From contig JANOSY010000085.1 of the NCBI GenBank assembly GCA_031416075.1, forward strand, positions 1 through 64,000: 64,000 nucleotides of DNA. The letters run 5' to 3'. Positions 14,552 to 45,608 of the stretch are shown here, piece after piece (position 1 is the stretch's first letter; every line of letters begins with the position of its first letter). Origin of the DNA: Candidatus Tenderia sp. GTDB taxonomy: Bacteria; Pseudomonadota; Gammaproteobacteria; Tenderiales; Tenderiaceae. The position numbers and the translations under genes are program-made. The notes beneath the pieces are model-generated. The model did no database searches and was not told the DNA's origin. It saw only the letters and a program-made list of their open reading frames with translations.

Positions 14552-17500
14552 CTAAAAAATCCGATTGCCAAGGTCGCGCACCATAGCTGCCGGATCAACA
14601 TCCGGCACCTCAAACTGCACGTCGTCGAGTGAGACATTAAACGGCTGCCCCTCCTTGTAGTGGATCGGGAAACGTACCCCGAGGCGCAGATTGGAGCCGA
14701 GTTCGTAGGCGGCGAGCTGCCAGGTATTGTCGTAGACGCTGAAACCGAGCGCGGTGACGGCGACATAGCCCGATACATCAAACTTAAATTTGGGTTCGGC
14801 GTGCAGATACCCTTCAGCGTCGAACTGGAGGCCTTGGTTGGGTTTCCAGTCGATGTGGGTGCTGGCTTCGGCGGCACCGTCGATGCCAAGGGTGCCGCCC
14901 AACTCCAACCCACCGGTGACGCTGGCGCCGGTGATGCCGAGGCCGATGCCGACGCGGGCACCGAGGCGCAGTCCGGCGTCAGCAGGCACGTTGACGTGGG
15001 CGTCGCCGGTGATGTGGGTATCCTCCTCGTGGTCGGGATTGTAGGTGATGCCGATCTTGAGCTGATCAAGCGCGCCAGGGCCGATGCCAGCCTTGGCGCT
15101 GAGGTTGCCACCGACCTCGGCAACAATGCCGGGGAAGATCGGGATCTGGGTCGAGAGTGAGAAGAGCGACTTGTTCAGCTCTTTGCGCGGAAAGATCTCC
15201 AGCGAGCTGGGCAGGCCGAGTTCACCGGCGACGGTCACTTCGCCCTTCTCATCCAGGGTCAGCCCGACGGTCGCCTTGAGCCACGGCGCGGCGGTGACGT
15301 TGACCTTGCCGCCGCCCCAGACCTTCATCGGTTCTGCTTCGCCGCCGCCATCACCAATCATCGCACGGGCGTTGAGGTCGACATTGCCTTCGACGATGCT
15401 ACGTTTGTAGTTGGCAGTCAGTTTGCCGTTGAGCAGCCCATCCTTGTAGTCGAGGTTGATCTTGGCGCTGGCGTCCAGGCCGCTCAGGTCCGGCTCCAGC
15501 TCACCGCTGCCGCCCAGTGACCAGAGATCCCCTTTCCGCTCAGCCGAGACGTTAAGTTTGCCCGCCTTGATGCGCGGGATGGTATCGGAGAGAGTCGCCT
15601 CGCCCGCCAGCGTGATATTGCCACTGTCGTCGGCATGGGCCGCCAGCTTGGCCCCTTTGAAACCGGGTACCGAGAGGTCGGCATCACCGGCAAAGTCGAT
15701 CGCCTTCTTGGCGTCGTCATAGGCAAGGGTGAAGTTGGCCTTTTTGATCCCCTTGAGCGCCCCTGGCTTGAGGCCGAGCGTGCCCGAGGCCTTTAGCCCC
15801 TTTTCACTGTCGTAATTGACCTTGCCGCTGCCGGTAAACAGCTCTTTGTCGAACAGCAGTTCGGCACCGAGGCTAAAACCATCCATACGCCCCTCACCGG
15901 TCAGTGAACCTGTGGCCAGCTCGCCGATGTGGAAGTCGATGGCGCCGTCGACCCCGATGCCAGAGCCGCTGGCAATGCTGACGGTAAGCGAACATTCGTC
16001 GATCTGGACGGGCCCTTTCAGTGCAATCTCGTCACTGCTGAAAGTGCGGCTAAAGATGATTTCACCACCGATGAACTGTACGTCGATCTGTGCGCCCGCC
16101 AAAATCGGGATGCCATCCACCTTGAGCTTGCCTGCTGCTGAGAGATCAGCGCTGGCGTCCATCTCTGCTGTGTCGAGTGCAATGGGGCTGAGCAGGGAGT
16201 GGCTGAAGGCGAACTGAAAGTTGGGCAGGATCGATGCCGGTGCTACCGTGGCAATCAGTGGCGTGGATGGATTGCCTTGTAATGCCAACTCTCCCGGCAC
16301 GGGCTTTTTACCGCCACGGGTATTGGCCACCACCTTCATCTTGCCAGTGCCTGAGGTGCGATCAAAACTGCCATCCACCACGTCGAGCCGTTTACCCCAG
16401 TTGCCACCCTCAAACTTGCCGTCGGGCTTGAGCTCTTTTGAATACATGACGCCGCCGCCGGGACGCGGGAAAATCTTGACATGTTTGTCGTCGAAGAGCA
16501 GGTCGAGATCCTTTGCCGCAGGTTTTTCGAGTGGGTCGAGGGTATCGCCACCCTCTACCTGCCCCTGACTCCATTTGGTAGTGGGTTTACCTTTCAGCGG
16601 GACATCGTAGGTCACGCCAGTGAATTTGACGGTGTAATTTTTGAATATTTCGTCGATGGCGACTTTGGCGGGATCGGGCGTTTTGTCGGCTGTCGCCCCT
16701 CCGGCTGTCGGTGCGGCAGCGGTTGCCGGGGCGGTTGCGCCACCAGCCGCTGGGGTGGCGGCCGACTTTTTGGGCAACTCCTTGCCGAGTATGTCGGGTG
16801 CGGCACCACTCGAGGGGGGTTCGATGGGCAGGGCATTGCGGACGCGCGCCGTGATGGCCTTGTCGATACGAGAGCCCGCGCTACGGTTGGCCGAGGCGTC
16901 GAGCATATGCATGTTGTCGGTGGTATTGGGGCCACCCAACTGGATCTCTTTGACGTGGTCAACGTCGAAATTATTGAGTTCACCATTGGCGTCCCACCAG
17001 GGGGCTTTTAGTTGTGAGGTCATGTCGGCAACTGACCCCACCAGGAAACCGTTGGCAGTGCCCTTGGCTTTTAATGCGTAGATGGAGCTTGGAACGCCGG
17101 GCTTTTCAGGACTCTTGGCGGCTTTGGCCGTGATCTTGCTGGCATCGGGTGCTTTAACGCCTGCCATCCAGACCTGCCGCTGATTGTCGGGGCGTGGGAT
17201 GCGTTTGCCTTTTTCTACCATCACGGTCGCGCCAAAGGCGTCTTTGAGTCCGGGCTTGTCGGGCAGGGCGAGCCCGTCGATTATCAGCGTCTCGCCCTCT
17301 AGTTTACCTTTGCCAGTGCCCTGCATGGCGGCCGTGGATTTCGGTTTGCCGCCAGTCGCTGCTGGGGTGGTCGCAGGTGCACGCATCACCCGCTGCACGT
17401 CGCCGCCTTGCTGCACCACATGGGTCAACTCATGGGCCAGCAGTTCCCGGCCGCTGTCGCTCTCGGGCGAGAACTCACCGGGGGCAAAAAAGATATCGTT

Positions 17501-18151
17501 ACCAACCGTGAAAGCACGGGCGTTGGTTTCGGCGCAGAGATCGGCGGCTTCGCTGTCGGTGTGGATCCGTACCTGGCTGAAATCCTGTCCAAACTGACTC
17601 TCCATATCTCTCTTGGCCGCATCGGGTAGGGTTGCCCCCGCGCCACGGCGGGCCTCGATACGGTTTTCGGTTTCGGCGCTGGTGGTCTGCCCGGCCATTG
17701 GGTCGGCGGCTTCGCGCTGTACCTTTGTCTCATCTTTACCGGCGGCGGCCGCCTTTTTATCGAGCTGCTGCTCGGCGCTGTTTTCGGGCACCGGGCGGCG
17801 CTGGATAGTTTCAGCGGCGGGCACCGGTTTGAGCGCCAGGGTGTCGCCCTTTTCGGCATTGATCTTTGGTTCCAGGCTGGCGCGTTGGGCCTTCTTTGCG
17901 CCGTCCTGCTTTGGTATTGCGGGCGCTGCCGGGGTGGCCTTGGGGGCGCGGGCGACCTGCTGTGCAACCTTGTCGGCCTCTTTTTCAGCGCCGTCTTGTG
18001 GGTGGCTGACCGCCATCTTGGCCTGCATGTAGGCAGGTGGTTTTGCCGCCTCCGGTTTTTGGCTGCGCTGCGCGCTGGCCGCTTTTTTGGCGACCTTATT
18101 GCCATCCTTTTTTTCTGGGGTGGATTTACTCTTCTGGGTAGCGGCGGCCAT
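14552..18151 (-). CDS. DUF4157 (eCIS core domain) protein with an internal HNH-like motif and a long beta-rich C-terminus; candidate effector
   Basis: MESQFGQDFSQVRIHTD...ARAFTVGNDIFF...LLAHELTHVVQQ; later DVDHVKEIQLGGPNTTDNMHMLDASANRSAG. Confidence 0.85.
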   Translation of the reverse strand: MAAATQKSKSTPEKKDGNKVAKKAASAQRSQKPEAAKPPAYMQAKMAVSHPQDGAEKEADKVAQQVARAPKATPAAPAIPKQDGAKKAQRASLEPKINAEKGDTLALKPVPAAETIQRRPVPENSAEQQLDKKAAAAGKDETKVQREAADPMAGQTTSAETENRIEARRGAGATLPDAAKRDMESQFGQDFSQVRIHTDSEAADLCAETNARAFTVGNDIFFAPGEFSPESDSGRELLAHELTHVVQQGGDVQRVMRAPATTPAATGGKPKSTAAMQGTGKGKLEGETLIIDGLALPDKPGLKDAFGATVMVEKGKRIPRPDNQRQVWMAGVKAPDASKITAKAAKSPEKPGVPSSIYALKAKGTANGFLVGSVADMTSQLKAPWWDANGELNNFDVDHVKEIQLGGPNTTDNMHMLDASANRSAGSRIDKAITARVRNALPIEPPSSGAAPDILGKELPKKSAATPAAGGATAPATAAAPTAGGATADKTPDPAKVAIDEIFKNYTVKFTGVTYDVPLKGKPTTKWSQGQVEGGDTLDPLEKPAAKDLDLLFDDKHVKIFPRPGGGVMYSKELKPDGKFEGGNWGKRLDVVDGSFDRTSGTGKMKVVANTRGGKKPVPGELALQGNPSTPLIATVAPASILPNFQFAFSHSLLSPIALDTAEMDASADLSAAGKLKVDGIPILAGAQIDVQFIGGEIIFSRTFSSDEIALKGPVQIDECSLTVSIASGSGIGVDGAIDFHIGELATGSLTGEGRMDGFSLGAELLFDKELFTGSGKVNYDSEKGLKASGTLGLKPGALKGIKKANFTLAYDDAKKAIDFAGDADLSVPGFKGAKLAAHADDSGNITLAGEATLSDTIPRIKAGKLNVSAERKGDLWSLGGSGELEPDLSGLDASAKINLDYKDGLLNGKLTANYKRSIVEGNVDLNARAMIGDGGGEAEPMKVWGGGKVNVTAAPWLKATVGLTLDEKGEVTVAGELGLPSSLEIFPRKELNKSLFSLSTQIPIFPGIVAEVGGNLSAKAGIGPGALDQLKIGITYNPDHEEDTHITGDAHVNVPADAGLRLGARVGIGLGITGASVTGGLELGGTLGIDGAAEASTHIDWKPNQGLQFDAEGYLHAEPKFKFDVSGYVAVTALGFSVYDNTWQLAAYELGSNLRLGVRFPIHYKEGQPFNVSLDDVQFEVPDVDPAAMVRDLGNRIF

Positions 18152-18154
18152 GGT

Positions 18155-20107
18155 TTACCCCGGCAGATGTTCGAGTTGTGGTGGCAGGGTGCGACCGAGT
18201 TTGCGGTACTCGGCTCGTAGCGCCTCCAGCAGGTGGGTGGATGCCAGGGGACTCTCCGGCGGTTGCGGACTCAGGGCGGCGGCGTTCAGCACGATGTTGC
18301 GGATGTGGCCGCCCGCCAGGTCGCTGTAGCTGGCCAGCAGGCGGCAGGTCTGTTCGTTGGGTGCGCGGTTGCCGAGGTGCGAGCGCCACAGCCGGTAGCG
18401 CTCCTCGACGCCGGGCAGCGGGAATTCGATGATGGCGTCGAAGCGGCGGCTAAAGGCGGTGTCGATGCGGTTGCGGCTGTTGCTGGTGAGCAGAACGATG
18501 CCAGGGTGGTTTTCAATGCGGGTGAGCAGGAAGTTGGTGAGCATGTTGGCATAGCGCTCGCCGGTCTCCTTGCCGTCGCTGCGGCGGCCAAAGAGGGTGT
18601 CGGCCTCATCCATCAGCAGGATGGCATCGAGGGCGGCGGCCTCGTCCAGTACTCGGCCGAGGTTCTTCTCCGACTCCCCTATATATTTGTTCATCACCGC
18701 CGCCAGATCAACGCGGAACAGCGGTGCCCCCAGCAGCGTGGCCAGACGGCTGGCGGCGAGGGTTTTGCCCGCGCCGCTCTCCCCGGCAAAGAGGGCACGC
18801 ACGCCGGGGGTGGGGTCGGCGAGACTCGCCCCTAGTCCCTGCCACAACCGTTCGCGGCGCTGGCAGCGCTGGATCAACTCATCAAACTGGGTCTGGATCT
18901 CCGGCGGCAGGATCAGGCCGTCGGCCTCGACATGGCGTGTCACCGGCTGGGCCAGCAGCCGCAGCCGCTCGGAGCCAAACTGGGCGCGGGCGGCGCGCAG
19001 GTGGTGCGGGCCGGGTGGCTCATCGCGGTGGGCGCTGCTAAAGCGGATACGTTCGGCCAGTGCCTGGATGGTGGGGCCATCCACCAGCGCCTGTTCGGCC
19101 ATGCTCTCGGGGATCTGCTCTGATAGCGCATCGCGCCAAGCGGTCAGCCGTTCGTCGCGATTGAGTGTCGGCAGGGTGATTTCCAGGGTGTCGCTCGCCG
19201 CGACGGTGCCGTCGTGGCCGCAGACCAGCAGCAGTGGTGTCTGGTGGAGCTGGTTGCGGCTGGGGCTGAAACGTTCGCCGGGGCCAAGGTTGATCAGCAG
19301 CAGCGGTAGCCAGCTGCCGTAGTGGCAGGCGGTGGCCAGCACCGGGCGCTGCTCCCAGACCTCTTGATCCACCTCGATGGCCAGCAGACCAAGTTCAGCG
19401 GCCAGGGCGGCGGCAGCGGCAAGTCCCGCCTGCGGATTGCCACGCAATACCACCACCCGCACCGCCCCCTGCCGCAGCTGTCTGGCTAGCAGTGGCAGTT
19501 GCCGTTTCAGGTCGCCGGGCAGGGCGGCGTTGCCCGGCGGCAGTGGCCGGGTGCCGGGCCACGGGGTGCTGTCGCCACAGAGCAGCGCCCATAGCTCCGG
19601 CGGCAGGGTCAGTTGGCGGGTCGGCAAGGGGCCGTCACCGTTTATTTCCAATATCCCGGCGCGTACCAGCCTATGGCTGGGCAGGGCGAGTGGCGGCAGT
19701 GGCGCATCAAAGAGCGCTTGCGCCATCACCTCCAGCAGATGCAAGCCGGGGCGCGGCGCGGCGCCAGGGCTTTGCAGCTCCGCCAGCGCCAGGTTGAGCA
19801 GGTGACTCGCCTCGGTCTCGCCGCAGAGCGCCAGCACAAACCATTCGTGCAGCTGGAGCTGATAGTCGCGCAGCAACTGGCCAAAGGGACCGGGCAGCTC
19901 TGGCGCGTGTTGCGCCAGCCGACCGATAGCCTCTTCCCACTCACCCGCAGGCAGCCCCATCAGCGTGGCCAGATCGGCGTAACGCTCCAGCTGCTCAAAC
20001 AGCGGCGCTGGCTGGGCTAGATAGAGCCGCGCAAACCGCGCCACGCCGCTGTAGACAAAGGCGCGGTTGAGCAGGGCGGGGGTGATGATGGGTGGCGTGC
20101 TGTTCAT
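18155..20107 (-). CDS. AAA+ ATPase (Afp15/Pvc15-like)
   Basis: LFAGESGAGKT, KYIGESEKNL, MDEADTLFGRR, IDTAFSRRF. Start ATG 20107 overlaps the upstream TGA. Confidence 0.93.
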   Translation of the reverse strand: MNSTPPIITPALLNRAFVYSGVARFARLYLAQPAPLFEQLERYADLATLMGLPAGEWEEAIGRLAQHAPELPGPFGQLLRDYQLQLHEWFVLALCGETEASHLLNLALAELQSPGAAPRPGLHLLEVMAQALFDAPLPPLALPSHRLVRAGILEINGDGPLPTRQLTLPPELWALLCGDSTPWPGTRPLPPGNAALPGDLKRQLPLLARQLRQGAVRVVVLRGNPQAGLAAAAALAAELGLLAIEVDQEVWEQRPVLATACHYGSWLPLLLINLGPGERFSPSRNQLHQTPLLLVCGHDGTVAASDTLEITLPTLNRDERLTAWRDALSEQIPESMAEQALVDGPTIQALAERIRFSSAHRDEPPGPHHLRAARAQFGSERLRLLAQPVTRHVEADGLILPPEIQTQFDELIQRCQRRERLWQGLGASLADPTPGVRALFAGESGAGKTLAASRLATLLGAPLFRVDLAAVMNKYIGESEKNLGRVLDEAAALDAILLMDEADTLFGRRSDGKETGERYANMLTNFLLTRIENHPGIVLLTSNSRNRIDTAFSRRFDAIIEFPLPGVEERYRLWRSHLGNRAPNEQTCRLLASYSDLAGGHIRNIVLNAAALSPQPPESPLASTHLLEALRAEYRKLGRTLPPQLEHLPG

Positions 20108-21708
20108 GGCTGTGGCTCCAGTCCGCTGCCGTAGTGGAAGGTCACTACCCGTCCTAGCCATGGCACCCAGCCGGGGTTGATGTCGAGGCCGACGCGCCGC
20201 ACTGACAGACAGGCGTCGTTGAGGCGAAAGTGCAGGTTGACGTGGCTACTGTCGGCGATCAGTCGCGCTGGTATCTGCCATGTCTTTGCCTGCCACACCG
20301 CGTCACCGTAACGGTTGGCCCCCAGGTGTATGAGTGAGTTCACGGTGGCCAGGGGTGGTTGCTGTGCCAGCATCGCGCCGTTTTTCATGCCACATTCGTC
20401 GGCAATAAATTCCAGCAACGCCCCGGCGGGTGGGCAGCCGAGCGCTGTGGCCAGATCATAGAGCCAACGCCACCCGGCGCCGGGGCGGTCTGTGGGGAGC
20501 AACGCCCGCACCGCAGGCAGGTTGAGAAAGTTGATGAGGTAGAGCAAGCCACCTTGATGGGTGGTGAAGTTATGCTCGAAGGTGGTTTTGTATGTTGTTG
20601 TTGCAGAAGCTATTTCTGCTGTTGATTCTGTTTCTGAAACTGTTTTTGTGTCTGTTTCTTTATCTGTTTTTGGCGTAGCTGGATTCAAACTTCCTGTGAC
20701 ACTAAGTTCGAAGTGATTGCCGGACGACGTTGCCCTATCCAACGTTGGCGTGGGCATGGTCTCTTTAATTGATTGGGCCTCTACCTCATGTTGCTTCTCA
20801 ACACTGATCAGGCTGGGCGCTTTAGCACTGTAGTCTGGATGAAACACAGTGGAATCGGGGGCGCTGCTCCCCGGATTGCGTTTCACTCCATCCGGGCTAC
20901 CAGACTGCGCCGAGATGGTTGGCGAGTTGCCACTCATGATCCGCGTCAGCAGGCAGAGCTGTTCCGCCCCTGTTGCTCCTGTCGTCTGTGCCAACAGGGT
21001 TGGCGCTTGTTGCCACAGCGCCAACAGCGCCGCCAGCAGGGGGCGTGAATCGGTTGCTGCAACGTTGAGGAAACCAAGGTCGGTTTGTTGGCGGGGGATC
21101 AGCGCTGGCGCGACCATTATGTCGTTACTGGCGATAAGCTGACGGGCGGCCTGCACTGTCGCCGACCAACCAGCCGCCTGGGCGGCGACTGTCAGCAGCC
21201 GTTCAGCGCCACTGCTGCTAAGGCTCTGCCAGAAGGGTTGCCAGAGCTGGGTGGTGTGCAGCTGCGCCGCCACGGCGGGCAGGTACAGCGGTGACTCCTC
21301 AAGCAGGGCGACAAGCGCCGCGTCTGTGGGGTGTTGCAGTTCACCCTGCCAGCGCCGCCAGTACCAGTGGTGTTGGGCGCTGCCGTGCAGCAGGTCGCGG
21401 ATCAGGCAGGCGAGCAGGCTGGCGTGGCTGCGAAAGCGCACCGCCAGGGCGTTTGGAGCGGCGGCGGACCAGCCATCCACAGCGTTTTCGGCAAGACGGC
21501 GTGCCTGCTCGGCGGCGCGGGCGGCGATCTCGCGCGGGTTGCCGCTGGCGGTGATGCGGCGCAGAAAGAGCAGCTCCCCTGGTGCCGTGGTCGGCCAGCT
21601 GCTCTGCTCCAGCGCGGTTTTGAGGGGCGCGCGGGCGGCATCAATGGTCTCAATCGTGCCACGCAGGGTGACACGATTCAGTAGCACTGTTTCCGTGGCG
21701 GGGATCAT
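20104..21708 (-). CDS. Probable CIS tape-measure protein (Afp14-like)
   Basis: Directly upstream of the ATPase; low-complexity centre; C-terminal GGLLYLINFL...RRVGLDINPGWVPWLGRVVTFHY. Confidence 0.65.
   Translation of the reverse strand: MIPATETVLLNRVTLRGTIETIDAARAPLKTALEQSSWPTTAPGELLFLRRITASGNPREIAARAAEQARRLAENAVDGWSAAAPNALAVRFRSHASLLACLIRDLLHGSAQHHWYWRRWQGELQHPTDAALVALLEESPLYLPAVAAQLHTTQLWQPFWQSLSSSGAERLLTVAAQAAGWSATVQAARQLIASNDIMVAPALIPRQQTDLGFLNVAATDSRPLLAALLALWQQAPTLLAQTTGATGAEQLCLLTRIMSGNSPTISAQSGSPDGVKRNPGSSAPDSTVFHPDYSAKAPSLISVEKQHEVEAQSIKETMPTPTLDRATSSGNHFELSVTGSLNPATPKTDKETDTKTVSETESTAEIASATTTYKTTFEHNFTTHQGGLLYLINFLNLPAVRALLPTDRPGAGWRWLYDLATALGCPPAGALLEFIADECGMKNGAMLAQQPPLATVNSLIHLGANRYGDAVWQAKTWQIPARLIADSSHVNLHFRLNDACLSVRRVGLDINPGWVPWLGRVVTFHYGSGLEPQP
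20830..20900. repeat. Inverted pair of GTAG-tagged REP-like palindromes inside the tape-measure CDS
   Basis: GTAGTCTGGATGAAACACAGTGGAATCGGGG on + and GTAGCCCGGATGGAGTGAAACGCAATCCGGGG on -. Confidence 0.75.
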
Positions 21709-34115: not shown

Positions 34116-34119
34116 AATC

Positions 34120-34576: not shown

Positions 34577-34795
34577 TTATAGTTTTTCGCCGTACTCTTT
34601 TTCAAATTCCATTTTTAAATAATTGATTATTCCCTCCATTCGGTCGGTCTCTTCGCAGATTTCCGCCGCGTCATCTTCTCCGACTGTTTCTAGGTCAATA
34701 GCCAAATTGGAGGAAATTTTTTCTTCCAATGCTTCTATAACCAGCCGCCAATCCCCCATGATCATGGGGAGTGACAATCCATCAAGCTTATCCAT
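34577..34795 (-). CDS. Small acidic helical protein; candidate Tsi2-like immunity protein
   Basis: 72 aa, strongly D/E-rich, two amphipathic helices, start overlaps the toxin stop by 8 nt. Confidence 0.6.
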   Translation of the reverse strand: MDKLDGLSLPMIMGDWRLVIEALEEKISSNLAIDLETVGEDDAAEICEETDRMEGIINYLKMEFEKEYGEKL

Positions 34796-35207: not shown

Positions 35208-35249
35208 TTAGAACCCCTAATATTTGTGTTTTGAAAAGTTGAACGATGA

Positions 35250-37570: not shown

Positions 37571-38628
37571 GGATTCCAGTCGGGGCGCTGGACGCGCAGG
37601 CGGGTGCGCAGGCCGTTTGCCATATCAAACTGGTGCCAGCACTCCATCACCCGATAGCGCCCGGCCAGGCGCGGCGAGACGTTGTTGAGCTGGACCTCGC
37701 GGCCACTCTTCAAGGCGCTGTTGCCCTGGCAGATGATCTCGCCATGGAGGAAACGGTTGGCGCGTTGGCGGAACTGTTTGGTCGCCAGGGTCTCGGCCTC
37801 CTGCTGGGCGCGGGCGAAGGGGTGGGGCAGGGTTGATTCACTCTGCCAGCCCAGATCGGAGAGCAGGGTTGCGCCGGTTGTGCCGCTGGGGGCGGGGGCG
37901 ATGCTGGAGCTGCTGCCGCTGGCCTCGCTGTCGTCCGCCAGATTGTAGCCGCTGACCTTGACTTCACTCGGTTGCCGGTTGAGGTCGGCGATGATACGAA
38001 TATTGATGGCGGTGGCGGGGTCGAGTGCCACCGGTTCGGGGTCGGTCTCGTCGTCGCGCACCCGCAGTTGGCCGTTGTGCAGCCGCAGCCCCACGTCATA
38101 GCTGCTGAGCTGACGCATCAGAAAGGCGAGGTTGCTCTCGTTGACCTGGAGCCAGGTGGCGCTGCCGGAGGCGACGTTGACGTCACTCTGGAGGTTGGCC
38201 TCCCCAGCGATCTGCTGAACCACATCGTTCAAGCTCATCGATTCAAAGACGCGGTTGTGGCGCTGCCGCGCCAGCCGGTGCAGCAGATCTTCGGCGAGCA
38301 GGATAAGTTGCGGGGCACCGTCGCCATAACGCTCTTCGATGGCGGTGATCTCGCCGCTGAAGGCGCTGCTTTCGGCATTTTCACCCAGCAGCAGTTCGAT
38401 GCGGCTGCCCAGGCGAATATCCTGAAACAGAAAATCGGGCTGGCCGCTGCTGCCTGATCGATCACTGGCCCCCCAGTTGAGCAGGCGCACCTCGGCGCTG
38501 GCCATGCCAAAACGTGGCAGATGGATCTGCATCGAAAGCGCGGCCTCACCGAGATTGGCGCGGACGTTGCCATCGATGCTGATGCGCGGCCGGACGTTGA
38601 GCAGTGACAGGTCGTTAGTCGATGGCAA
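37567..38628 (-). CDS. gp27/late control D-like hub protein (VgrG N-terminal half)
   Basis: FSGEITAIE, QVNESNLAFL, GN..LKSG..V.L..V..RL.G.Y.V..C.H.FD. Confidence 0.88.
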   Translation of the reverse strand: MPSTNDLSLLNVRPRISIDGNVRANLGEAALSMQIHLPRFGMASAEVRLLNWGASDRSGSSGQPDFLFQDIRLGSRIELLLGENAESSAFSGEITAIEERYGDGAPQLILLAEDLLHRLARQRHNRVFESMSLNDVVQQIAGEANLQSDVNVASGSATWLQVNESNLAFLMRQLSSYDVGLRLHNGQLRVRDDETDPEPVALDPATAINIRIIADLNRQPSEVKVSGYNLADDSEASGSSSSIAPAPSGTTGATLLSDLGWQSESTLPHPFARAQQEAETLATKQFRQRANRFLHGEIICQGNSALKSGREVQLNNVSPRLAGRYRVMECWHQFDMANGLRTRLRVQRPDWNP

Positions 38629-38779
38629 GGCGGGCCCTCCTCTCTTGCAGCAGCTCCAGCAGATTGATCATGGACTGTTTCTCCTGCTCCTCGGTGGGGC
38701 GTGGTTCACCCTCGCCAGCGCCGTCGTGCTGTGGCGCTGCTTCGACATTGGCAATCATCTCGTTAATCACAACCGCCAT
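38615..38779 (-). CDS. 54-aa small CIS protein (Afp6-like), not in the ORF track
   Basis: Hand-translated MAVVINEMIANVEAAPQ...LLELLQERRARLAID*; fills the gap exactly, with a TGATG overlap upstream and an overlap into the hub gene. Confidence 0.75.
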   Translation of the reverse strand: MAVVINEMIANVEAAPQHDGAGEGEPRPTEEQEKQSMINLLELLQERRARLAID

Positions 38780-39483
38780 CAACGACCTCCGCTCTGTGCG
38801 CTGCTGTTGGGTACATTGACGCCGTTGTCTGGCGTGGTGCGTGGGTTTTCAAGGTTGTTGGCGTCGGCCACGCCGCGCCAGTCACGCGGGTTTTGACCGG
38901 CAGCCTGGGTGGCCTGCGCGGCGCTGACACCCGCACCACCGGGGGTAAACTTGGGCAGCTCGCGCACGGCGGCCTGTACGGCTTCGTCCATATCAAACTG
39001 GTAGCGATCCTCCTTGAGGTTGAGTGCTAGGGTGGCGCGCAACGGAATCCCCTCAGGGGCAAAAAAATCGAGGGTCTCGCTGTAGCTGGAGACCATGCCG
39101 CTGAACTGGAAGCTGCCCCACTGAAAGCGGCAGCGTTTGGGCGCCTTGGGACGTTTGGAGTTGGGCTCCTGCGGCTGCATGAACTGCTCGGCGATGCGTC
39201 TGGTCTGTTTGCGCACGTCGGAGTTGGCCTGTACCGCTTTCCACTTGATGGTGGTATCGAAGAGTAGCTCTACACTCAGGTTGGATTCGCTCTTTTCGAC
39301 AAACTGGGCGGCGTTGCGGCTGCCGCCACTGCCACCTTTGTTGTCGGCCTTGAGGCTGTTGGATAGGGTGACCTTGAGCGTGGCCGGATTGAACTGCACC
39401 TCGATATGTTGGTTTTCGTCGGTGACAACCTTGTCGCCCTCCATCGGGATCAGTTTGGCATGTGCGATCTTGATGTCAGCCAT
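38779..39483 (-). CDS. Afp7-like tube initiator with a degenerate LysM domain
   Basis: VQFNPATL, LSVELLFDT, P..CRFQWG, FFAPEGIPLRA, WRGVADANNLENPR. Confidence 0.88.
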   Translation of the reverse strand: MADIKIAHAKLIPMEGDKVVTDENQHIEVQFNPATLKVTLSNSLKADNKGGSGGSRNAAQFVEKSESNLSVELLFDTTIKWKAVQANSDVRKQTRRIAEQFMQPQEPNSKRPKAPKRCRFQWGSFQFSGMVSSYSETLDFFAPEGIPLRATLALNLKEDRYQFDMDEAVQAAVRELPKFTPGGAGVSAAQATQAAGQNPRDWRGVADANNLENPRTTPDNGVNVPNSSAQSGGR

Positions 39484-39489: not shown

Positions 39490-39975
39490 CTACTTCGTTC
39501 CTTGTGTGGGAGGCCGTTCCAGGGTCAGCCCCTCATGCACCAGATGCAGCTCCTCCACGGCCACCTGACTGGCAGTGGCGGAGAGATCGGGACCCTTGAA
39601 TTTGGTGGGCAGCACGTTGATAAGATTCCAACGCAAGGCGGGCTCTCCTGAGGGGAGAAACACCTCGATCATGCCGCTGTAACGCAGGCCATAGTTGGCG
39701 CTGCGGGTGGTGGTTTCGAACCAGCTCCAGAGATGGTCGATGTCGGTGATGCCGCGCTTCAGGATCACCGGCGGAAAGGTGACCGGACCGGAGAGCTGCA
39801 CCTCGCCCCAGTTGCGGCCACCCTCTTTGTGGGTTTTGGGTGTCATGCTCGCCTCCAGTCCGGAGACCTCGCTGAAGGCTCCCTGGCACAGCTCCTGGCT
39901 GACATCCGCGCTGTCGAAAAGGGTGACGCGGAAGCGAAAGGGGATGAATTCACCGGGTACGCTGTCGTCAGCCAT
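39490..39975 (-). CDS. Tail tube protein 2 (T4 gp19-like, Afp5-like)
   Basis: FRFRV, FSEVSGLE, EGGRN, LKRG, P.KFKGP.LSA..SQVAVEEL. Start ATG 39975. Confidence 0.9.
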   Translation of the reverse strand: MADDSVPGEFIPFRFRVTLFDSADVSQELCQGAFSEVSGLEASMTPKTHKEGGRNWGEVQLSGPVTFPPVILKRGITDIDHLWSWFETTTRSANYGLRYSGMIEVFLPSGEPALRWNLINVLPTKFKGPDLSATASQVAVEELHLVHEGLTLERPPTQGTK

Positions 39976-41557
39976 TGGCAACCTCAATGTCGGTGCTGGT
40001 CCCGGTGCTGTGGCGATTCTGCATGAAGGTGATACGCAGCCGGTCGATGGGGTAGGCCGGGGCGATCTCGATATCGAAGGCGATGAGGTTGTCGCCATCA
40101 TTGCGTTGGGTCAGGGTGAAACCATCCTCAGCCCGGCGACCGCGCAGTGCGCCGAGGCCATGGAGCCGGGTGAAGAAGGCACGCAGCGCCAGCGCCGGAC
40201 GTGGGTCGCGTGGATCGACATCAAAGATCATCCGTTCGCCCAGCCCCTGGAGTTCACGCCGTAACCAGCCCATAAAACGCATGATCTCGGCGGAGCGCCA
40301 GTGTTCGTCGTTGCGTCGTTCACTACTGAGTTGTTGCAGTGCGGCGGCGGGCAGACACGGTGCACACATCCGTTCGTCATCCACCACGGTGCGGCTGGCG
40401 CGGTGCAGCAGCACAGTTACGCCGGGGCGGTTGCGCAGTGCCGTGGCGCCCTGTTGATTCAGCGGCGGCCACGGCAGGCAGCGCCCCGGCAGCGGCCGGG
40501 CACCGATGGAGCGCCACGGGCCGTGCTGCTGGCTCACCATCGCCTGCATTCCGGCGACCAGACCTACGGCTGTACCGAGTCTGCGGTCCGGTCCACGCAG
40601 ATAGGGGTAGAGCAGTTGCAGGTGACGGATGGCCTCGGTCAGGGTGCCGCGTGACCCATCAACCAACAGACCATCGTCATCGATGCCGACGGCCTGGGCG
40701 AGGCAGTCGAGAAACTCGGGGGCCGGACCGGGGCGTTCACTGCCGGGGATGGCGGCGAGCGCCACGCTCAGCAGACACTGCATGTCGGGGCGCAGCCGCG
40801 CCAGGGTGCGGGCGATGGGAGTCACCACCTCACGCGAGGCGAGGGGTTCAGGCATTTGCGGGATTTCGTCCGCGTGGCGTCGTTCGCGGTGGCCGTCGCC
40901 CAGATCGGCACCGCAGGGCAAAAAGACCGGTGGTGGGCTGTCGAGACGTACTCTTGGAATATCTTCAAGGTGGGATGGAATCTGTAATCGTTCCAGGTCC
41001 GGCAGCGCCAGTATGCCCGCCCGTGGAATCAGCAGCGCCCGTTCAAAGGGGCCTAATGTCTCTGGTTCGACCATGTTGGCGTTGGCCGTTGGCAGGAATG
41101 GTTGGCTGCCTGCCGCTTCATCGACGCGGATGATCCAGAGTTTGAGTGTCTGGCCATCGCCGCTGCTTTCAAAAAAATCCTGCACTGCCAGTGGTAGCCA
41201 GGCATGTTCGCCACCGAGCACGCTGCGATACTGCGTGGCGGTCTCGAAGGTGTCGGGGAAGAGCGCCTGAAATTGACCAAAGGAGTAGAGCGGGATCGGC
41301 AGGTTGTAGAGCGCCAGTAGCGTTGCATCGTCTGCCGTTGCCGGGACGCCTGCTGCCAGGTCACGCAGACGTGAACACTCCTGAGTGAAGCCAAGCTGAG
41401 TAATCTCGGCCAGCAACATTGCATCGCTGGCAAGCCGCCGCCACTGGATGCGCTCTGCGGGCGATGGACAGTGGCCGATCATCACCACCTCCAGCACGGT
41501 CTGTGCCGGAGGTGTCGGACGGGCGTCGAGTTCGATGCGGTTGTCGGCGAACAGCAT
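39968..41557 (-). CDS. Divergent second tail sheath protein
   Basis: PIPLYSFGQF...LAVQDFF...WIIRV N-terminus; RFMGWLRR...IFD...GALRG...IAPAYPI C-terminal sheath pattern. Confidence 0.7.
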   Translation of the reverse strand: MLFADNRIELDARPTPPAQTVLEVVMIGHCPSPAERIQWRRLASDAMLLAEITQLGFTQECSRLRDLAAGVPATADDATLLALYNLPIPLYSFGQFQALFPDTFETATQYRSVLGGEHAWLPLAVQDFFESSGDGQTLKLWIIRVDEAAGSQPFLPTANANMVEPETLGPFERALLIPRAGILALPDLERLQIPSHLEDIPRVRLDSPPPVFLPCGADLGDGHRERRHADEIPQMPEPLASREVVTPIARTLARLRPDMQCLLSVALAAIPGSERPGPAPEFLDCLAQAVGIDDDGLLVDGSRGTLTEAIRHLQLLYPYLRGPDRRLGTAVGLVAGMQAMVSQQHGPWRSIGARPLPGRCLPWPPLNQQGATALRNRPGVTVLLHRASRTVVDDERMCAPCLPAAALQQLSSERRNDEHWRSAEIMRFMGWLRRELQGLGERMIFDVDPRDPRPALALRAFFTRLHGLGALRGRRAEDGFTLTQRNDGDNLIAFDIEIAPAYPIDRLRITFMQNRHSTGTSTDIEVANG

Positions 41558-41560: not shown

Positions 41561-42019
41561 TTACTCCTGGGTGACCATCTCGACCGACAGCACCAGCTCT
41601 TCAATCGCCACATCACCGCCGCCCTTGGCGGTGAGGGTGGGGCCGGTCCATTTGATGGGCATGGCGCTGACCAGTTTCCAGGTGACGACGGTGCTGTCAC
41701 GGTCTTCGCTCTGGAGTTTGATAACGATGTTGCGCTTGGCCTCCTTGAGGTTGCCGTTACGGCACTTCTCCAGCCATTCGTAGAGGTTCTGTGCGCCAAT
41801 GACACCACGCTTGAGGGTGACGTCCCCGGCCTTGTGGATGCCGGGCAGTTTGTTGACATAGTTCACCTTGGAGTTGCCGGCGCGGTATTCCGCAACGGTG
41901 ACCTCGGCGTTGAGGCCTGAGACCTCTGAAAATCCGGCCTGAATCTCCTGGCCCTGGCCGGGTTCGATCTCCACCAGAAAGTTGAAGGCGGAGTAGGGTG
42001 TATCGCGTAAAGTTGCCAT
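41561..42019 (-). CDS. Major tail tube protein (T4 gp19-like, Afp1-like)
   Basis: PYSAFNFLVEI, GFSEVSGL, EYRAGN, KLPG, VTLKRG, P.KWTGP.L.A....VAIEEL. Confidence 0.95.
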   Translation of the reverse strand: MATLRDTPYSAFNFLVEIEPGQGQEIQAGFSEVSGLNAEVTVAEYRAGNSKVNYVNKLPGIHKAGDVTLKRGVIGAQNLYEWLEKCRNGNLKEAKRNIVIKLQSEDRDSTVVTWKLVSAMPIKWTGPTLTAKGGGDVAIEELVLSVEMVTQE

Positions 42020-42045: not shown

Positions 42046-44202
42046 TTAGGCGTCGGCGGTCTTCTGGCCGATGCGGAAAATGACAAACTCGGCGGGGGTG
42101 AGCGCGGCTACGCCGACGACACAGACCATGCGGCCGTTGTCGATGTCGTTCTGGGTCATCGTGGACCTGTCGCAACGGACGAAGTAGGCCTCTTTCGGGG
42201 TGCTGCCGAGCAGCCGTCCGCTCTTCCATTCGTTAAAGACAAAATCCTCAACCGTGCTGCGGATGTTGGACCAGAGCGCTTCGCCATTCGGTTCAAACAC
42301 TGCCCATTGGGTGGATTTTTCGATCGAGCGTTCGAGGTAGAGGAAGTAGCGCCGTACGTTGACATATTTCCATTCGGGGTCGCTGGAGAGGGTACGTCCA
42401 CCCCAGATCCGATGGCCACGGCCAGGGAAGGAGCGCAGGCAGTTGATGCCATTGGGGTTGAGCAGCTCCTGCTGGAATTTGTTGATCTGCTGTTCGAAAC
42501 GCAGCGCCCCCATTACCACTTCGTTGGCGGGTGACTTGTGCACACCACGCTCAACATCGGTACGGACATAGACACCGGCGATGAAGCCGGCGGGGGGGAC
42601 TGCCAGTTCGTTGCGGACACCAGTGGGGTCGGCGATGACCACCCAGGGGTAGTAGAGTGCCAGACGGCTGTCGTCAAAGTCGTTACGGAAGGCGCGTACT
42701 TCACCCAGTGACATGCCCAGGCGACTGTCGGCAATACCGATGCGGTAACGCATCTTGCGGCAGTGTTTCTGTACCCCCATCAGCACTGCCTTGTGTGTTG
42801 CTGCATGGGCCGCAGCAGCGGGAGTCATGACGATGGATATATCTTCAATCCCTTCGAGGGAGGCCAGGCCGGTGCTGCCGTTGGTCTCATCCTCTTCACC
42901 GGCGTAGTCGATGGCGACGGGAACGTTGCCATCGGTTCCATCCTTGAGTTCGATGATGTAGCGCGGATCATCGAGTGAGTTGGCAGGTGGTTGCAGATCA
43001 GCCTGTACATAGAGTGCTTCGAGTGCAGCAAGTACCTTGGCGCCTGTAATGGCTGCACCAAATTTACTGGAGATGGGCTGTGCCAGCTGCGCGGCCTTTT
43101 TCTCTGGTGTGGCAGTGAAGATGCTGTCGAGGCTTTGATCGGTGCCGGGGGCGATGGTGATGGCGGCAGCACGCCAGATGACCTCGCCGTTTTTGTCACC
43201 GCGGTGTACATCGAGATCGAACAGCGATGCTGCAACACTCTTTATATCGACGAGGTTGTTGCCCAGCGCCGCCAATGGCAGCTCCAGATCACCCGTCAGC
43301 GAGGCGTTGCGGGTGGCGGGCAGGGAGAGTGTGTCACCCTTGATGTTGATGAAACCGATAAAGGTTGTGCCAGCGCCGAGCACCCAACTGCTGTTGAGTG
43401 TGGTGAGATCAACAGCTTTTTTTAACTTCAGCACTGCCGCTGTGCCGTCGGCCAGTACACCGTTGGTAGGGCGACGGGCGCGGATGCGGTAGACGTGGGT
43501 GGTGGCAGCGGGCAGCTCGGCAATATTCAAACCGGCCAGGGCAGTATCGTCAACAGGATCACCCGTGGTTGAGTCGGTGGTGATCGCCGTGCCGATCACT
43601 TCGTAGTTCGCGCCGTTACGTTTGACCACGGCCTTGACGTTGACCGGAAATTTGTCATTGGCCGGGCCGGTGGTCTTGGCGCTGGCGGGCACATTTTTGA
43701 CATCGATAAAAACAATCTCATCCTGATCTGCCGTGCCCAGCTGGGTGCTGGTGAGCAGGTGTTCACTCTCTTTCCAGTGCAGCTCCAATGTGTAGTTGCC
43801 CATGGCGCCGGGGAAGCGTGACTGAAAGCTGACATCGGTAACTGACGCCTTGCTCTTGGCCAGGATGGCGCTGGCGCCGCTGCCATCAGCACTTACATCA
43901 TTTACCCCCTGAATGACACGCGCCACATAGAGCTGCTTGCCACCGTTGTCGAAAAAGGCGCGGGCGGCGTGGGCGGTGTAGTTGGGCACGGGGGTTGAAA
44001 CATCGGAGAAGGTTAGATCGTTGGCATCACCAAAGATGCGCTCGAATTCGGCATAACTGGTGACCACCTCCGGCGCGCCGCGTAGCGGTCCGGTACGGGT
44101 GGGACCCACTAGTGAAGAGACGCTGGTACCGACCCCTTCAATGGATTTATGGCGAAAACTGGTCTCCTCTATAAATACTCCGGGGGCTAGGTATTCAGGC
44201 AT
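42046..44202 (-). CDS. Major contractile tail sheath protein
   Basis: MPEYLAPGVFIEE, FFDNGG, ALYYPW, RGVHKSPANE, YVNVRR, WAVFEPN, PAEFVIFRI. Confidence 0.97.
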   Translation of the reverse strand: MPEYLAPGVFIEETSFRHKSIEGVGTSVSSLVGPTRTGPLRGAPEVVTSYAEFERIFGDANDLTFSDVSTPVPNYTAHAARAFFDNGGKQLYVARVIQGVNDVSADGSGASAILAKSKASVTDVSFQSRFPGAMGNYTLELHWKESEHLLTSTQLGTADQDEIVFIDVKNVPASAKTTGPANDKFPVNVKAVVKRNGANYEVIGTAITTDSTTGDPVDDTALAGLNIAELPAATTHVYRIRARRPTNGVLADGTAAVLKLKKAVDLTTLNSSWVLGAGTTFIGFINIKGDTLSLPATRNASLTGDLELPLAALGNNLVDIKSVAASLFDLDVHRGDKNGEVIWRAAAITIAPGTDQSLDSIFTATPEKKAAQLAQPISSKFGAAITGAKVLAALEALYVQADLQPPANSLDDPRYIIELKDGTDGNVPVAIDYAGEEDETNGSTGLASLEGIEDISIVMTPAAAAHAATHKAVLMGVQKHCRKMRYRIGIADSRLGMSLGEVRAFRNDFDDSRLALYYPWVVIADPTGVRNELAVPPAGFIAGVYVRTDVERGVHKSPANEVVMGALRFEQQINKFQQELLNPNGINCLRSFPGRGHRIWGGRTLSSDPEWKYVNVRRYFLYLERSIEKSTQWAVFEPNGEALWSNIRSTVEDFVFNEWKSGRLLGSTPKEAYFVRCDRSTMTQNDIDNGRMVCVVGVAALTPAEFVIFRIGQKTADA

Positions 44203-44232: not shown

Positions 44233-45021
44233 TTACGTTGATTTAAGAACGATTAGGGTGTGATTCGGACTGACAACTTTGGCAACGGTCCCTGGTGCTA
44301 TTGCCAGATTGAGCGTTTTAACAAACAGGCTGTTGCCACCACTGTTTTTGCCGTTGGCGATGTCGACTTGGGTGAGTGTATCCGGGTCAACAAGCGCTTC
44401 AGGCGCTGTGGAGTGCAGAGCCTTAACTTCAAGTGTTGCGCTGTAGGTTGTGGTGGGTGCATCTTTGGTGAGAGCAGGCAGGCGGTTCAGTGGCAGAGAG
44501 AATTCGCCATGAATATCCGACTGGGCGACAAATTTAAGCGGTGCACCGAGTGAGGGTGTCACTGTCAGTGTTATGAGTGCCCATGCTGCGGTGTTGCCAT
44601 CATCAAAACCTACTTGACCATAAATGCCGCCAGCATTGCTGAAACGTGCCCCAAAAGGTGAGTGGTAGAGCGAAACCTGATGTTCGCTGTTGGAACCTAT
44701 AGTGAAGGAGAATATACGTGGCAGATAGCGGCCAGAGGGGTCGGAGACGTTGCCGTCGATTGGATAGGATGTGATCGATTGTGCCGTTTTGTCTGCGTCG
44801 GTTGCAATGCCCTTAACGACCTTCGATGGTCCGGCGCTGTTTTTATGCCAGAGTAAAGTGCCTTGAGGTTTGTGGTGTACGTAGAGCGCTTGTGGGGCTC
44901 TGTTAAATTCGATACGTAAGGTTGCAGGGGGGATGCGCTGAGGTGGTTTGTTGGCGAAGCCGCTGCGTTCGTGCCACTCGACCAGATCACCTCCGTGGAT
45001 GATTAATGTTTCGGTAATCAT
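44233..45021 (-). CDS. Beta-rich hypothetical protein between cap and sheath (possible cap adaptor)
   Basis: ATGA-coupled to the DUF4255 gene; Ig/carboxypeptidase-regulatory-like strand pattern. Confidence 0.6.
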   Translation of the reverse strand: MITETLIIHGGDLVEWHERSGFANKPPQRIPPATLRIEFNRAPQALYVHHKPQGTLLWHKNSAGPSKVVKGIATDADKTAQSITSYPIDGNVSDPSGRYLPRIFSFTIGSNSEHQVSLYHSPFGARFSNAGGIYGQVGFDDGNTAAWALITLTVTPSLGAPLKFVAQSDIHGEFSLPLNRLPALTKDAPTTTYSATLEVKALHSTAPEALVDPDTLTQVDIANGKNSGGNSLFVKTLNLAIAPGTVAKVVSPNHTLIVLKST

Positions 45022-45608
45022 TTGTTGTTCTCCATACGTGTATCCATAGGATAAACGAGGGTTTTGACTAATGGCCCTTCGTCACGTTCATCATCAGGGG
45101 ATAGCCGTAATGTTTTGATGATGTAGGGAACAGATAGGCGATATCCACCAGGAAAGCTATCCCACAGACGGGTGAGATCCTCGGTGCTCATCTCTTCAGG
45201 TATCACTTGTACCGAGTCGGTCTCCCCCCAGCTTGGGTCAGCGATGCCAACTTCAGCAATGCCGAGATTCATGGCGCTGCCGATGATTTGCATGGCGGTG
45301 GAAAGATAGGTGACTTCAGCTTCGTTTTTGTCGCTCCAGCCGACCAATAAAATATGCAGATTAACCGGCAGTTCAGGGCGTGGAGTTTTTCTTCCCTCGG
45401 CGGCGGCCAGATGGCGGTTGCGGGCGTAAGGATCCACGGCGATTCGATAGAGGTAGATGCCCAGCGATTCAGAGGTGGGTGTTCCGCTTAACTCTTGCGA
45501 ACCCAGCAGTTTGACGTTTGGATTGCCGCCAAGTAGGGCGGCCATGCGTAGCGACAGGCGCTCTTTTAACGCTTGTAAGACCCCCATGCTTGCACGATAT
45601 CCAGCCAT
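45018..45608 (-). CDS. DUF4255 tail terminator/cap protein (Afp16-like)
   Basis: LGIYLYRI..D...RN, LPVNLHIL, LTRLW...YRLSVPY; first gene of the operon. Confidence 0.9.
   Translation of the reverse strand: MAGYRASMGVLQALKERLSLRMAALLGGNPNVKLLGSQELSGTPTSESLGIYLYRIAVDPYARNRHLAAAEGRKTPRPELPVNLHILLVGWSDKNEAEVTYLSTAMQIIGSAMNLGIAEVGIADPSWGETDSVQVIPEEMSTEDLTRLWDSFPGGYRLSVPYIIKTLRLSPDDERDEGPLVKTLVYPMDTRMENNK

Follow-up and report, generated by a model that had tools for sequence, protein, structure and literature searches.

The stretch analysed here (hereafter the window) comprises 64,000 nucleotides (nt) of a Candidatus Tenderia sp. genome, namely positions 1 to 64,000 of contig JANOSY010000085.1 in assembly GCA_031416075.1, and its positions 14552-45608 form one intact, tightly packed operon of ~31 kb whose long open reading frames (ORFs) are all on the minus strand. 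The gene content that defines it makes this locus a member of the superfamily of extracellular contractile injection systems (eCIS) and not a type VI secretion system (T6SS). Judged by comparison of sequences, its membrane protein, g10, is a conserved core gene of a whole clade and not an addition to this locus; in the relatives it sits directly between the spike and the gp25-like wedge, where other subtypes carry PAAR. We consider it rather probable that the operon was horizontally acquired and represents a single, intact contractile injection system (CIS) of eCIS lineage II, of a PAAR-less type with a split spike, which has later received selfish insertions. The available evidence fits a member of a catalogued and experimentally uncharacterised subtype, and toxin-immunity pairs beside eCIS have already been published. 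Contractile injection systems are being sorted into released, membrane-anchored and cytoplasmic ones, a distinction not yet predictable from sequence, and g10, a protein in the PAAR position without a family or known fold, offers a handle on whether PAAR-less systems act at the membrane. It is this clade-wide membrane protein, rather than the toxin pair, that is worth following.

The conservation of the operon is apparent from its relatives. A scan of one genome per prokaryotic species returned 266 loci with a g10 relative, the best 80 of which were fetched and searched by tblastn with the 24 products of the window (g01-g24). The order from g01 to g20 is collinear in 79 of the 80 loci, the exception (L073) being due to a cross-match between two tube genes. 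In five relatives extended downstream (Thauera, Methylomonas, Hahella, Marinobacter and Desulfobulbus), g21, g22 and the ATPase gene then follow without exception, and a g24-like DUF4157 protein is found in four; the Hahella stretch showed none, and the Marinobacter copy is only partial. Since the same gene order is kept in nearly all relatives, the transmembrane protein and the large accessory genes belong to the core of a widespread type, and twenty genes of the operon appear to constitute a fixed cassette common to hundreds of genomes. A preliminary description of the locus had taken it for an atypical hybrid of eCIS and T6SS; the traits in question turn out to be the fixed signature of a syntenic clade, and the gene-order comparison that it had called for revealed neither the accessory genes nor the membrane protein to be peculiar to this locus. 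According to the names of the records, carriers include Rhodocyclales, Thauera, Accumulibacter, Burkholderiales, Holophagaceae, Cellvibrionaceae, Methylomonas, Marinobacter, Hahella, Thalassolituus, Aliikangiella, Chromatiales, Desulfobulbales and Planctomycetota, so that the clade spans Beta- and Gammaproteobacteria, Desulfobacterota, Acidobacteriota and Planctomycetota. Cultured carriers exist among species of Methylomonas, Marinobacter, Thauera, Hahella, Thalassolituus and Aliikangiella.

The membrane protein itself has the following coordinates:

g10, 35250..36932, minus strand: protein of 560 amino acids (aa), counted from the second Met, with a C-terminal membrane anchor (hydrophobic segment 507-543)

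Among the 24 products, g10 is the only one with a strong hydrophobic segment (residues 507-543, Kyte-Doolittle 2.66), in agreement with the earlier observation of a membrane-spanning protein beside the spike, and its N-terminus is polar, with no hydrophobic stretch. It has no match in Pfam, PHROGs, NCBIfam or PADLOC, and its 95 homologues in a large protein collection are all unnamed and devoid of Pfam domains. No more than 137 nt separate g10 from the gp25 gene in 76 of 79 loci, and in the other three the best g10 alignment stopped early. In the AlphaFold2 (AF2) model, built from an 18-row alignment (mean predicted local distance difference test, pLDDT, 74.9), a mixed alpha/beta body, modelled for the most part with confidence, spans residues 12-400, and the chain ends in two helices, 516-537 and 541-558, the few residues past the hydrophobic stretch being basic. 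Such a model fits an anchor that forms a hairpin or lies in the plane of the membrane, with the whole protein on the cytoplasmic side. A Foldseek search of the PDB with the model gave no match at E <= 0.001, and a search of a protein atlas returned unnamed clusters only. By contrast, when 1.84 billion cluster representatives were searched with the last 150 aa, 723 clusters matched at E <= 0.001; in all of the best 150 of these the shared module reaches within ~20 residues of the C-terminus, and the proteins listed range in length from ~90 aa (fragments) to 685 aa. The host's family also has a sister form of the locus (G016:C1:2620000-2651000, L112 and L113; also in genomes G008, G012, G017 and G022), with a 570-aa sheath and likewise in a high-G+C island. 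In the g10 position it encodes a membrane protein of 739-804 aa (739 aa in G016), which has only the C-terminal module in common with g10, and the conserved unit is therefore the C-terminal module with the anchor.

Gene content and subtype

A Pfam scan of 23 ORFs with curated cut-offs was used to annotate the 24 products. Apart from g10 and the genes of two low-G+C insertions, which are described below, they are as follows:

g01, 45018..45608, minus strand: Pvc16_N/DUF4255 cap (tail terminator), 196 aa (PF14065, E 5.1e-29)
g02, 44233..45021, minus strand: conserved protein of unknown role, 262 aa, in the same position in 59 of 80 loci
g03, 42046..44202, minus strand: long sheath, 718 aa (Pfam sheath domains, E 5.6e-20 and 4.3e-13)
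g04, 41561..42019, minus strand: tube protein of the gp19 family, 152 aa (PF06841, E 4.7e-37)
g05, 39968..41557, minus strand: 529 aa, no family match of its own in Pfam, NCBIfam, PHROG or PADLOC
g06, 39490..40101, minus strand: second tube protein of the gp19 family, ORF of 203 aa (PF06841, E 6.4e-30, residues 55-193)
g07, 38779..39483, minus strand: CIS_tube family (tube initiator), 234 aa (PF19266, E 3.8e-27)
g08, 37567..38628, minus strand: gp27-like baseplate hub (Phage_GPD), 353 aa (PF05954, E 1.3e-9)
g09, 36926..37570, minus strand: gp5-like spike (OB fold and beta-helix), 214 aa (PF04717, Phage_base_V, E 6.1e-16)
g13, 34120..34515, minus strand: gp25-like baseplate wedge, 131 aa (PF04965, E 7e-21)
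g14, 31938..34202, minus strand: Baseplate_J (Afp11/Cis11-like) (PF04865, E 1.7e-5)
g15, 29532..31934, minus strand: Tail_P2_I (Afp12/Cis12-like), 800 aa (PF09684, E 6.9e-6)
g18, 27737..28711, minus strand: protein with Cis13-like N-terminus, 324 aa (NCBIfam CIS13_fam, E 5.4e-8)
g19, 25195..27726, minus strand: protein with Cis13-like N-terminus and long coiled coil, 843 aa (CIS13_fam, E 6.1e-6; SMC-like coiled-coil matches)
g20, 23572..25170, minus strand: paralogue of the g19 N-terminus, 532 aa (CIS13_fam, E 6.8e-5)
g21, 21713..23566, minus strand: conserved protein of unknown role, 617 aa, in five of five extended relatives
g22, 20104..21708, minus strand: conserved fast-evolving protein, 534 aa, in five of five extended relatives at 27-43% identity
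g23, 18155..20161, minus strand: AAA+ ATPase (Afp15/Cis15-like), 668 aa (PF00004, E 2e-23)
g24, 14552..18151, minus strand: DUF4157/eCIS_core protein, 1199 aa (PF13699, E 8.6e-33)

The core set of an eCIS, comprising sheath, tube, gp25, Baseplate_J and the gp5/gp27 spike, is encoded together with all members above Pfam cut-offs, and the same holds for the eCIS markers, namely, the DUF4255/Pvc16 cap, the AAA+ ATPase and DUF4157. The preliminary description had recognised a structural set resembling that of the antifeeding prophage (Afp) together with these three markers, within limits that proved exact, and its observation that the operon has no recognisable PAAR, holin/endolysin or TssJLM gene was borne out as well: Pfam reported none of these families for the 23 operon ORFs. 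With the genome's own PAAR as the single tblastn query, the best match in the window had E 1.1, and nothing better than E 2.0 was found in 86 related stretches. Moreover, PF05488 is found inside the locus in none of five related genomes, the Thauera genome having no match anywhere. An identity as T6SS was considered and rejected, TssC being found only on contig C56 of the host genome and no TssJ, TssL or TssM family among the operon ORFs.

Several of the structural genes deserve comment. The cap gene g01 is present in 59 of the 80 related loci, the remainder being cut by contig ends; its neighbour g02 has no match in Pfam, NCBIfam, PHROG or PADLOC. Hub and spike are separate ORFs, and the C-terminal YTPGAGN(I/L/V)W of the spike is almost invariant across relatives. 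The product of g05 is 23% identical over 456 aa (E 3.3e-6) to that of the gene in the same position in G016, which in turn matches solved sheaths (E 7.5e-16); by way of this G016 gene, g05 is probably a much-diverged second sheath paralogue. The true start of g06 is probably the Met at about 39975, and that of g14 probably lies near 34115. Baseplate_J is in single copy, only one ORF matching PF04865, and g15 gave no match in the PDB sequence search.

The preliminary description had also counted four large accessory genes, whereas five, of 324, 843, 532, 617 and 534 aa, are conserved between the baseplate genes and the ATPase. The first, g18, is conserved in 64 of 80 loci, and in all 64 it lies within 328 nt of the Tail_P2_I gene. 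The CIS13_fam matches of g18-g20 cover the N-terminal 65-85 residues and are far below the NCBIfam cut-off of 370 bits; g19 and g20 are 24% identical over 343 aa in BLASTP (E 4.9e-7). No family match was found for g21 in Pfam, NCBIfam, PHROGs or PADLOC, nor for g22 in PHROGs, NCBIfam or PADLOC. The latter is only 75% identical in the same-genus genome G009, whereas its neighbours are 93-95% identical.

The eCIS subtypes of Chen et al. 2019 (PMC6899500) provide a frame for placing the locus. According to that work, IIb alone among the subtypes lacks afp10/PAAR; IIa, IIb and IIc have separate gp27 and gp5 ORFs in place of one VgrG-like gene; one afp11 copy is found in Ia, Ib, IIb and IId and two in IIa; divergent afp12 and afp13 are kept in IIa and IIb; and IIb has two or three subtype-specific genes without known domains, with afp6 listed for it. 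The locus resembles IIb in being PAAR-less and in having a split gp27/gp5 spike, one Baseplate_J and conserved genes without known domains. As to the divergent afp12 and afp13 of IIb, Tail_P2_I is above the cut-off here, and the Cis13-like g18-g20 are significant by E-value and far below the cut-off. Only IIb combines all these published traits, and by them the locus fits this subtype. The proposal that the locus belongs to an uncharacterised subtype thus stands in one respect, as we found no published experimental characterisation of any member of this type in the full-text literature (subscription-only papers and supplements excluded), and falls in another, as the subtype is already catalogued and its traits match IIb.

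Membrane protein, candidate payload and proposed mode of action

The architecture of contractile tails is well established and provides the basis for the assembly steps proposed here. The hub, spike and wedge proteins would form a baseplate, on which tube and sheath would polymerise in the cytoplasm; the Pvc16-like protein would cap the tube and sheath, and the ATPase g23 would aid assembly or loading. Contraction would then drive tube and spike through a membrane. The payload would be g24, with its metalloprotease-like HExxH, an HNH-like motif and a long beta-hairpin domain.

We tentatively prefer a reading, to which we give slightly less than even probability, in which g10 is held in the inner membrane of the producer by its C-terminal hydrophobic hairpin, its ~500-aa body faces the cytoplasm and docks the spike end, and the machine fires from within the cell. 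This reading is favoured because the other lineage-II systems described in the literature consulted are cytoplasmic or membrane-anchored: those of Streptomyces, Roseiflexus and Deinococcota are cytoplasmic (PMC12237407, PMC12998442), and the haloarchaeal one is membrane-anchored (PMC11566945). Furthermore, a conserved membrane protein accompanies membrane-bound or cytoplasmic action in IIa (PMC11566945) and IId (PMC12237407). Membrane anchoring of the particles is therefore plausible by analogy. When the complex of three spike C-termini (residues 95-214) with g10 was predicted, the score was 0.21 against a mark of 0.32, which weighs on neither side. An apparent natural fusion of spike and g10 in locus L050 (778-aa ORF, L050:9150-9700) was rejected as a frame artefact of a 10-N run, the L050 spike ending normally in another frame.

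A classical extracellular mode, in which particles released by lysis bind through the Cis13-like proteins and inject, and g10 serves as a spike-tip, a membrane-inserting tip, cargo or an assembly factor, appears doubtful to us. In its favour, the gene position of g10, between spike and gp25, is the PAAR position of other subtypes (PMC6899500), three proteins have Cis13-like N-termini and one of them a long coiled coil, and DUF4255, the AAA+ ATPase and DUF4157 are all published eCIS markers (PMC8213781). However, no lysis gene was recognised in the operon or in ~6 kb of either flank, the only regions scanned; the 37-residue hydrophobic segment of g10 would have to be covered if the particle were soluble, and there is no obvious chaperone-like gene; and, within the texts available, the characterised lineage-II systems are all intracellular (PMC12237407, PMC11566945, PMC12998442).

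The same lack of recognisable lysis genes in a cluster with g10 as its sole membrane protein could suggest that g10 is itself a release factor, a large holin-like protein that opens the inner membrane after assembly. Holins are small, multi-pass proteins, whereas g10 has 560 aa and a folded N-terminal body of 400 aa. Moreover, its gene lies among the structural genes and not at the end of the operon, and no endolysin partner is found among the 23 operon ORFs, which makes this role very improbable.

The candidate conserved payload is g24. Its HExxH motif is HELTH at residue 240, and a D-H...E...N...N motif at 397-422 (D397-H398...N422) is almost invariant in a 27-row alignment. The C-terminal 600 aa are conserved in 299 proteins; among the 120 listed, identity is 40-80%, most have 1000-1450 aa and all but three carry DUF4157. 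The AF2 model of this region (pLDDT 71.5) is all-beta and contains hairpins whose strands reach 28 residues, and an atlas search with g24 returned its own kind. DUF4157 has been described as an eCIS core domain that is joined to toxins by long linkers and has an unknown role (Geller et al. 2021, PMC8213781). Compared with the same-genus genome G009, g24 shows 47% aa identity overall, whereas the other island genes, except g22, show 86-99%. As for the middle of g24 (15247-17403), all detectable DNA similarity to its counterpart (L115:7483-9553) is lost, although the DNA identity of the surrounding genes is ~90%; the pattern resembles that of an allele replaced or diversifying fast. The low identity of g24 and g22 fits parts that meet a target.

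Several points weigh against these readings. With regard to the subtype, the locus fits IIb by five published traits, a label given by traits alone, and no afp6-like gene, as listed for IIb, was recognised among the operon ORFs in Pfam or NCBIfam. With regard to docking, the Cis13-like g18-g20 with the long coiled coil could be tail fibres, which would suit a released particle. Furthermore, a periplasmic domain is missing from g10, and neither a peptidoglycan hydrolase nor a TssJLM-like complex was recognised in the cluster; since there is no periplasm-spanning part, the route of a docked particle past the outer membrane of a diderm cell is left unexplained. More generally, the mode of action is not reliably readable from sequence (PMC12998442). 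With regard to the payload, g24 is the best candidate on the published DUF4157 association alone, and its Pfam HNH match is below threshold (E 0.0083, 16.7 bits against a cut-off of 21.4). An LptD-like barrel fold for its C-terminus, suggested by matches with E 3.6e-6 to 1e-3, was rejected: template modelling (TM) scores of 0.13-0.17 and a root-mean-square deviation >30 A indicate that these matches reflect a long beta-hairpin meander and not a common fold.

Low-G+C insertions and genomic setting

The operon stands out as an island with 57-69% G+C in most 500-bp windows between 14501 and 44000, against 40-52% in the flanks; the host genome (3.49 Mb, 95 contigs) has 52.8%. Two low-G+C dips break the island, at 34501-35500 (41-46%) and 28501-29500 (47-55%), the neighbouring genes having ~64%. 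A third dip (51.8%) at 20501-21000 lies within the fast-evolving g22. The two main dips hold the following features:

g11, 34788..35207, minus strand: Tse2-family ADP-ribosyltransferase toxin, 139 aa (PF18648, E 6.7e-12, 46.6 bits against a cut-off of 26.6)
g12, 34577..34795, minus strand: acidic partner and candidate immunity protein or antitoxin, 72 aa, overlapping g11 by 8 nt
g16, 29118..29507, minus strand: DUF559 protein (Vsr-like endonuclease fold), 129 aa (PF04480, E 6.7e-33; G+C 47%)
Tandem repeat array, 28775..29143, no strand: 72 bp x 5.1 (Tandem Repeats Finder score 591, 92% matches)

A toxin-immunity-like pair had been noted earlier, and the g11-g12 pair is indeed of the Tse2-Tsi2 type, with a family match and an adjacent, conserved small partner, although g12 has no match in the family searches (PHROG and PADLOC included) and a direct PDB sequence search with either protein gave nothing meaningful. 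What did not hold is that the pair is a T6SS-like trait of the system: g11, g12, g16 and g17 (an apparent ORF within the array) were found by tblastn in none of the 80 related loci. Records named Sessilibacter, Pseudoalteromonas and Rheinheimera contain homologues of g11 with 80-90% identity, and a Pantoea record contains one with 60%. In the Pseudoalteromonas plasmid NZ_CP098526.1 (3799 bp), an ORF of 70 aa that is 66% identical to g12 comes after the toxin gene and again overlaps it by 8 nt, the remaining plasmid genes being a replication gene and three small ORFs. In the Cellvibrionaceae genome G006, which carries an eCIS of the same type (L045), 22 toxin-family matches are scattered across the chromosome and none lies in the eCIS locus. 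Several of these 22 matches have internal stops, and the toxin family is unusually expanded there. The junction between toxin and g10 is bridged by contigs of a second sample from one study and of a second study, with 0 and 15 differences, and no supported contig skips the insertion; the toxin insertion is therefore real and stable and not an assembly chimera. Together, these sequences read as a mobile cassette of the addiction type that inserted into the 50 nt separating g10 from gp25 and is not a part of the machine.

The pair could alternatively make the system an antibacterial one, with g11 loaded as an effector beside the spike, g12 providing immunity and competing bacteria being killed in the manner of a T6SS, as the preliminary description had taken it to hint. 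In favour of this, g11 is above the PF18648 cut-off and has a conserved adjacent partner, the pair lies within the operon in the same orientation, just downstream of spike and g10, its junction with g10 is stable across samples, and toxin-immunity pairs beside eCIS operons are on record (PMC8213781). However, the pair is missing from every related locus and differs in G+C content from the island around it, it also occurs on a 3.8-kb plasmid that otherwise carries a replication gene and small ORFs, in the manner of an addiction module, and the toxin matches of G006 all lie outside its eCIS locus. A toxin that acts in the cytoplasm, such as Tse2, needs a partner for self-protection whatever the target, and the pair therefore does not point to bacterial prey and says little about the target. 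Overall, we regard an antibacterial function as improbable; a role of the pair as cargo is possible but unsupported, and toxicity of g11, its neutralisation by g12 and delivery by the contractile system are all putative. The T6SS-like look of the locus came from this hitch-hiking cassette, a caution that gene neighbourhood alone would mislabel the system as antibacterial.

Returning to docking at the inner membrane, its broadest form, which we consider rather unlikely as a whole, would apply across the clade. A PAAR-less machine would be tethered by the tail-anchored g10 to the cytoplasmic face of the inner membrane and would fire without a TssJLM-like complex, with neighbours as its target or, as in Streptomyces, for suicide triggered by stress, delivering the protein with DUF4157, HNH-like and beta-hairpin parts; in the present locus, a mobile Tse2-family toxin may have been captured as spike-proximal cargo. 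If true, this would be a mode of action new for diderm bacteria, across hundreds of loci.

The second dip contains the DUF559 gene and the array. The apparent ORF of 137 aa at 28708-29121 (g17) is not a gene; it is mimicked by the 72-bp x 5.1 array, in which both strands are open. Inverted copies of a 37-nt repeat bound the array (28749-28785 and 29121-29157), and one of these arms coincides with the 3' end of the DUF559 gene. Contigs C93 and C14 have further copies of this arm, and the sister locus in G016 has related repeat peptides in its intergenic gaps; the array repeats appear native to the host family. As part of the reading of the whole operon, the DUF559 gene and the array are probably a later selfish insertion into an intergenic gap and not a part of the machine.

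Outside the island, the flanks consist of ordinary chromosomal genes. One side encodes a Dyp peroxidase, a rhomboid protease, GlnD and a methionine aminopeptidase, and the other encodes DUF1428, a glyoxalase, a phosphonate-binding protein, a two-component system and a GGDEF-EAL protein. No integrase or lysis gene was found among the flank genes scanned (~6 kb on each side), and the window contains no tRNA. In same-genus G009, two contigs end inside the island and both flanks match at 94-95% nt identity; in same-genus G010, the upstream flank and the start of the long sheath lie on one contig. By flanks and contigs, the island appears to occupy the same site in at least three of five genomes of the genus. 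A g10 search in the same-genus genomes was negative (0 of 4), the case of G009 being an assembly gap, with the middle of the island missing from its assembly. Compared with G009, most island genes show 90-99% aa identity against 89-90% nt identity, indicating purifying selection on the island. Among the 80 fetched loci, the closest relatives of the island genes by tblastn are in a Rhodocyclales genome (58-84% aa identity).

The host genome (G000) carries a second, unrelated eCIS locus on contig C8 (~29970-50583; L001, L101 and L102), with native G+C content (47.6% for the contig). It comprises a Pvc16 cap, a 508-aa sheath, two tubes, CIS_tube, a single VgrG-like ORF of 596 aa, gp25, an AAA ATPase, a 1371-aa ORF next to gp25 in the Baseplate_J position and the only PAAR of the genome. 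A genome-wide PAAR check, as had been recommended, therefore does find one PAAR, but it belongs to this second locus. In addition, two adjacent TssC/VipB genes (E 6e-137 and 1e-115) lie at C56:52480-54966 (L097 and L098). The genome thus carries T6SS genes besides two eCIS loci; T6SS and eCIS have been suggested to seldom share a genome (PMC6899500).

Comparison with known systems

The toxin pair recalls Tse2-Tsi2 of Pseudomonas aeruginosa, as g11 belongs to the Tse2 family (PF18648) and is followed by a small acidic protein; g12 is small and acidic, as is Tsi2. However, g11 has no direct sequence match to any solved chain and is encoded inside an eCIS operon, with no link to a T6SS.

The systems of subtype Ia, Afp and the Photorhabdus virulence cassettes (PVC), have the families of sheath, tube, gp25, Baseplate_J, spike, Pvc16 cap and AAA+ ATPase in common with the locus. 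They differ from it in their single VgrG-like ORF and PAAR-like Afp10 (PMC6899500) and in gene order, the cap gene coming first here. SalCIS of Salmonella enterica subsp. salamae (Ib; 10.1101/2025.06.01.657177) is likewise an eCIS-type cluster; it reportedly encodes an integral membrane protein and interacts with the inner membrane. It differs in having a PAAR-like Cis10 and in its membrane protein Cis19, in which a signal sequence and three transmembrane helices are combined with a periplasmic hydrolase domain.

Among solved structures, the long sheath g03 is closest to 8bky/9gtp (E 2.6e-104) and 8bl4/9gts, followed by 9ezm (E 5.8e-97), whereas Afp and PVC sheaths are much further away (E 1e-39 to 2e-48, PDB sequence search). 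9GTP and 9GTS are models of the Streptomyces coelicolor CIS (PMC12237407), a IId system, which thus provides both the closest solved sheath and the closest Baseplate_J, g14 matching chain 9gtp_1K with E 8.3e-40. The IId spike is one ORF (PMC6899500) and that of the locus is split. Fibre-like genes were not reported for the Streptomyces CIS (PMC12237407), in contrast to the three Cis13-like proteins found here. Streptomyces also provides a membrane protein for comparison, CisA, which is encoded in the cluster and needed for firing at the cytoplasmic membrane, and in which a single transmembrane segment joins an unstructured N-terminus in the cytoplasm to a solute-binding-like domain in the periplasm (PMC12237407). 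By contrast, the N-terminal body of g10 is folded, its anchor is C-terminal and it lacks an outside domain; it is not a CisA homologue, and the architecture of a CisA-type adaptor is not found in it.

The second-closest solved sheath, 9ezm, is named in the study of the haloarchaeal T6SS, where the system is called clade IIa (PMC11566945). Clade IIa has two afp11 copies and PAAR (PMC6899500), against one copy and no PAAR in the locus, and the haloarchaeal anchor, for which six transmembrane helices are predicted and whose gene lies upstream of the core cluster (PMC11566945), is unlike g10. Since sheath and Baseplate_J are nearest to the Streptomyces CIS and haloarchaeal structures, the locus is placed in lineage II.

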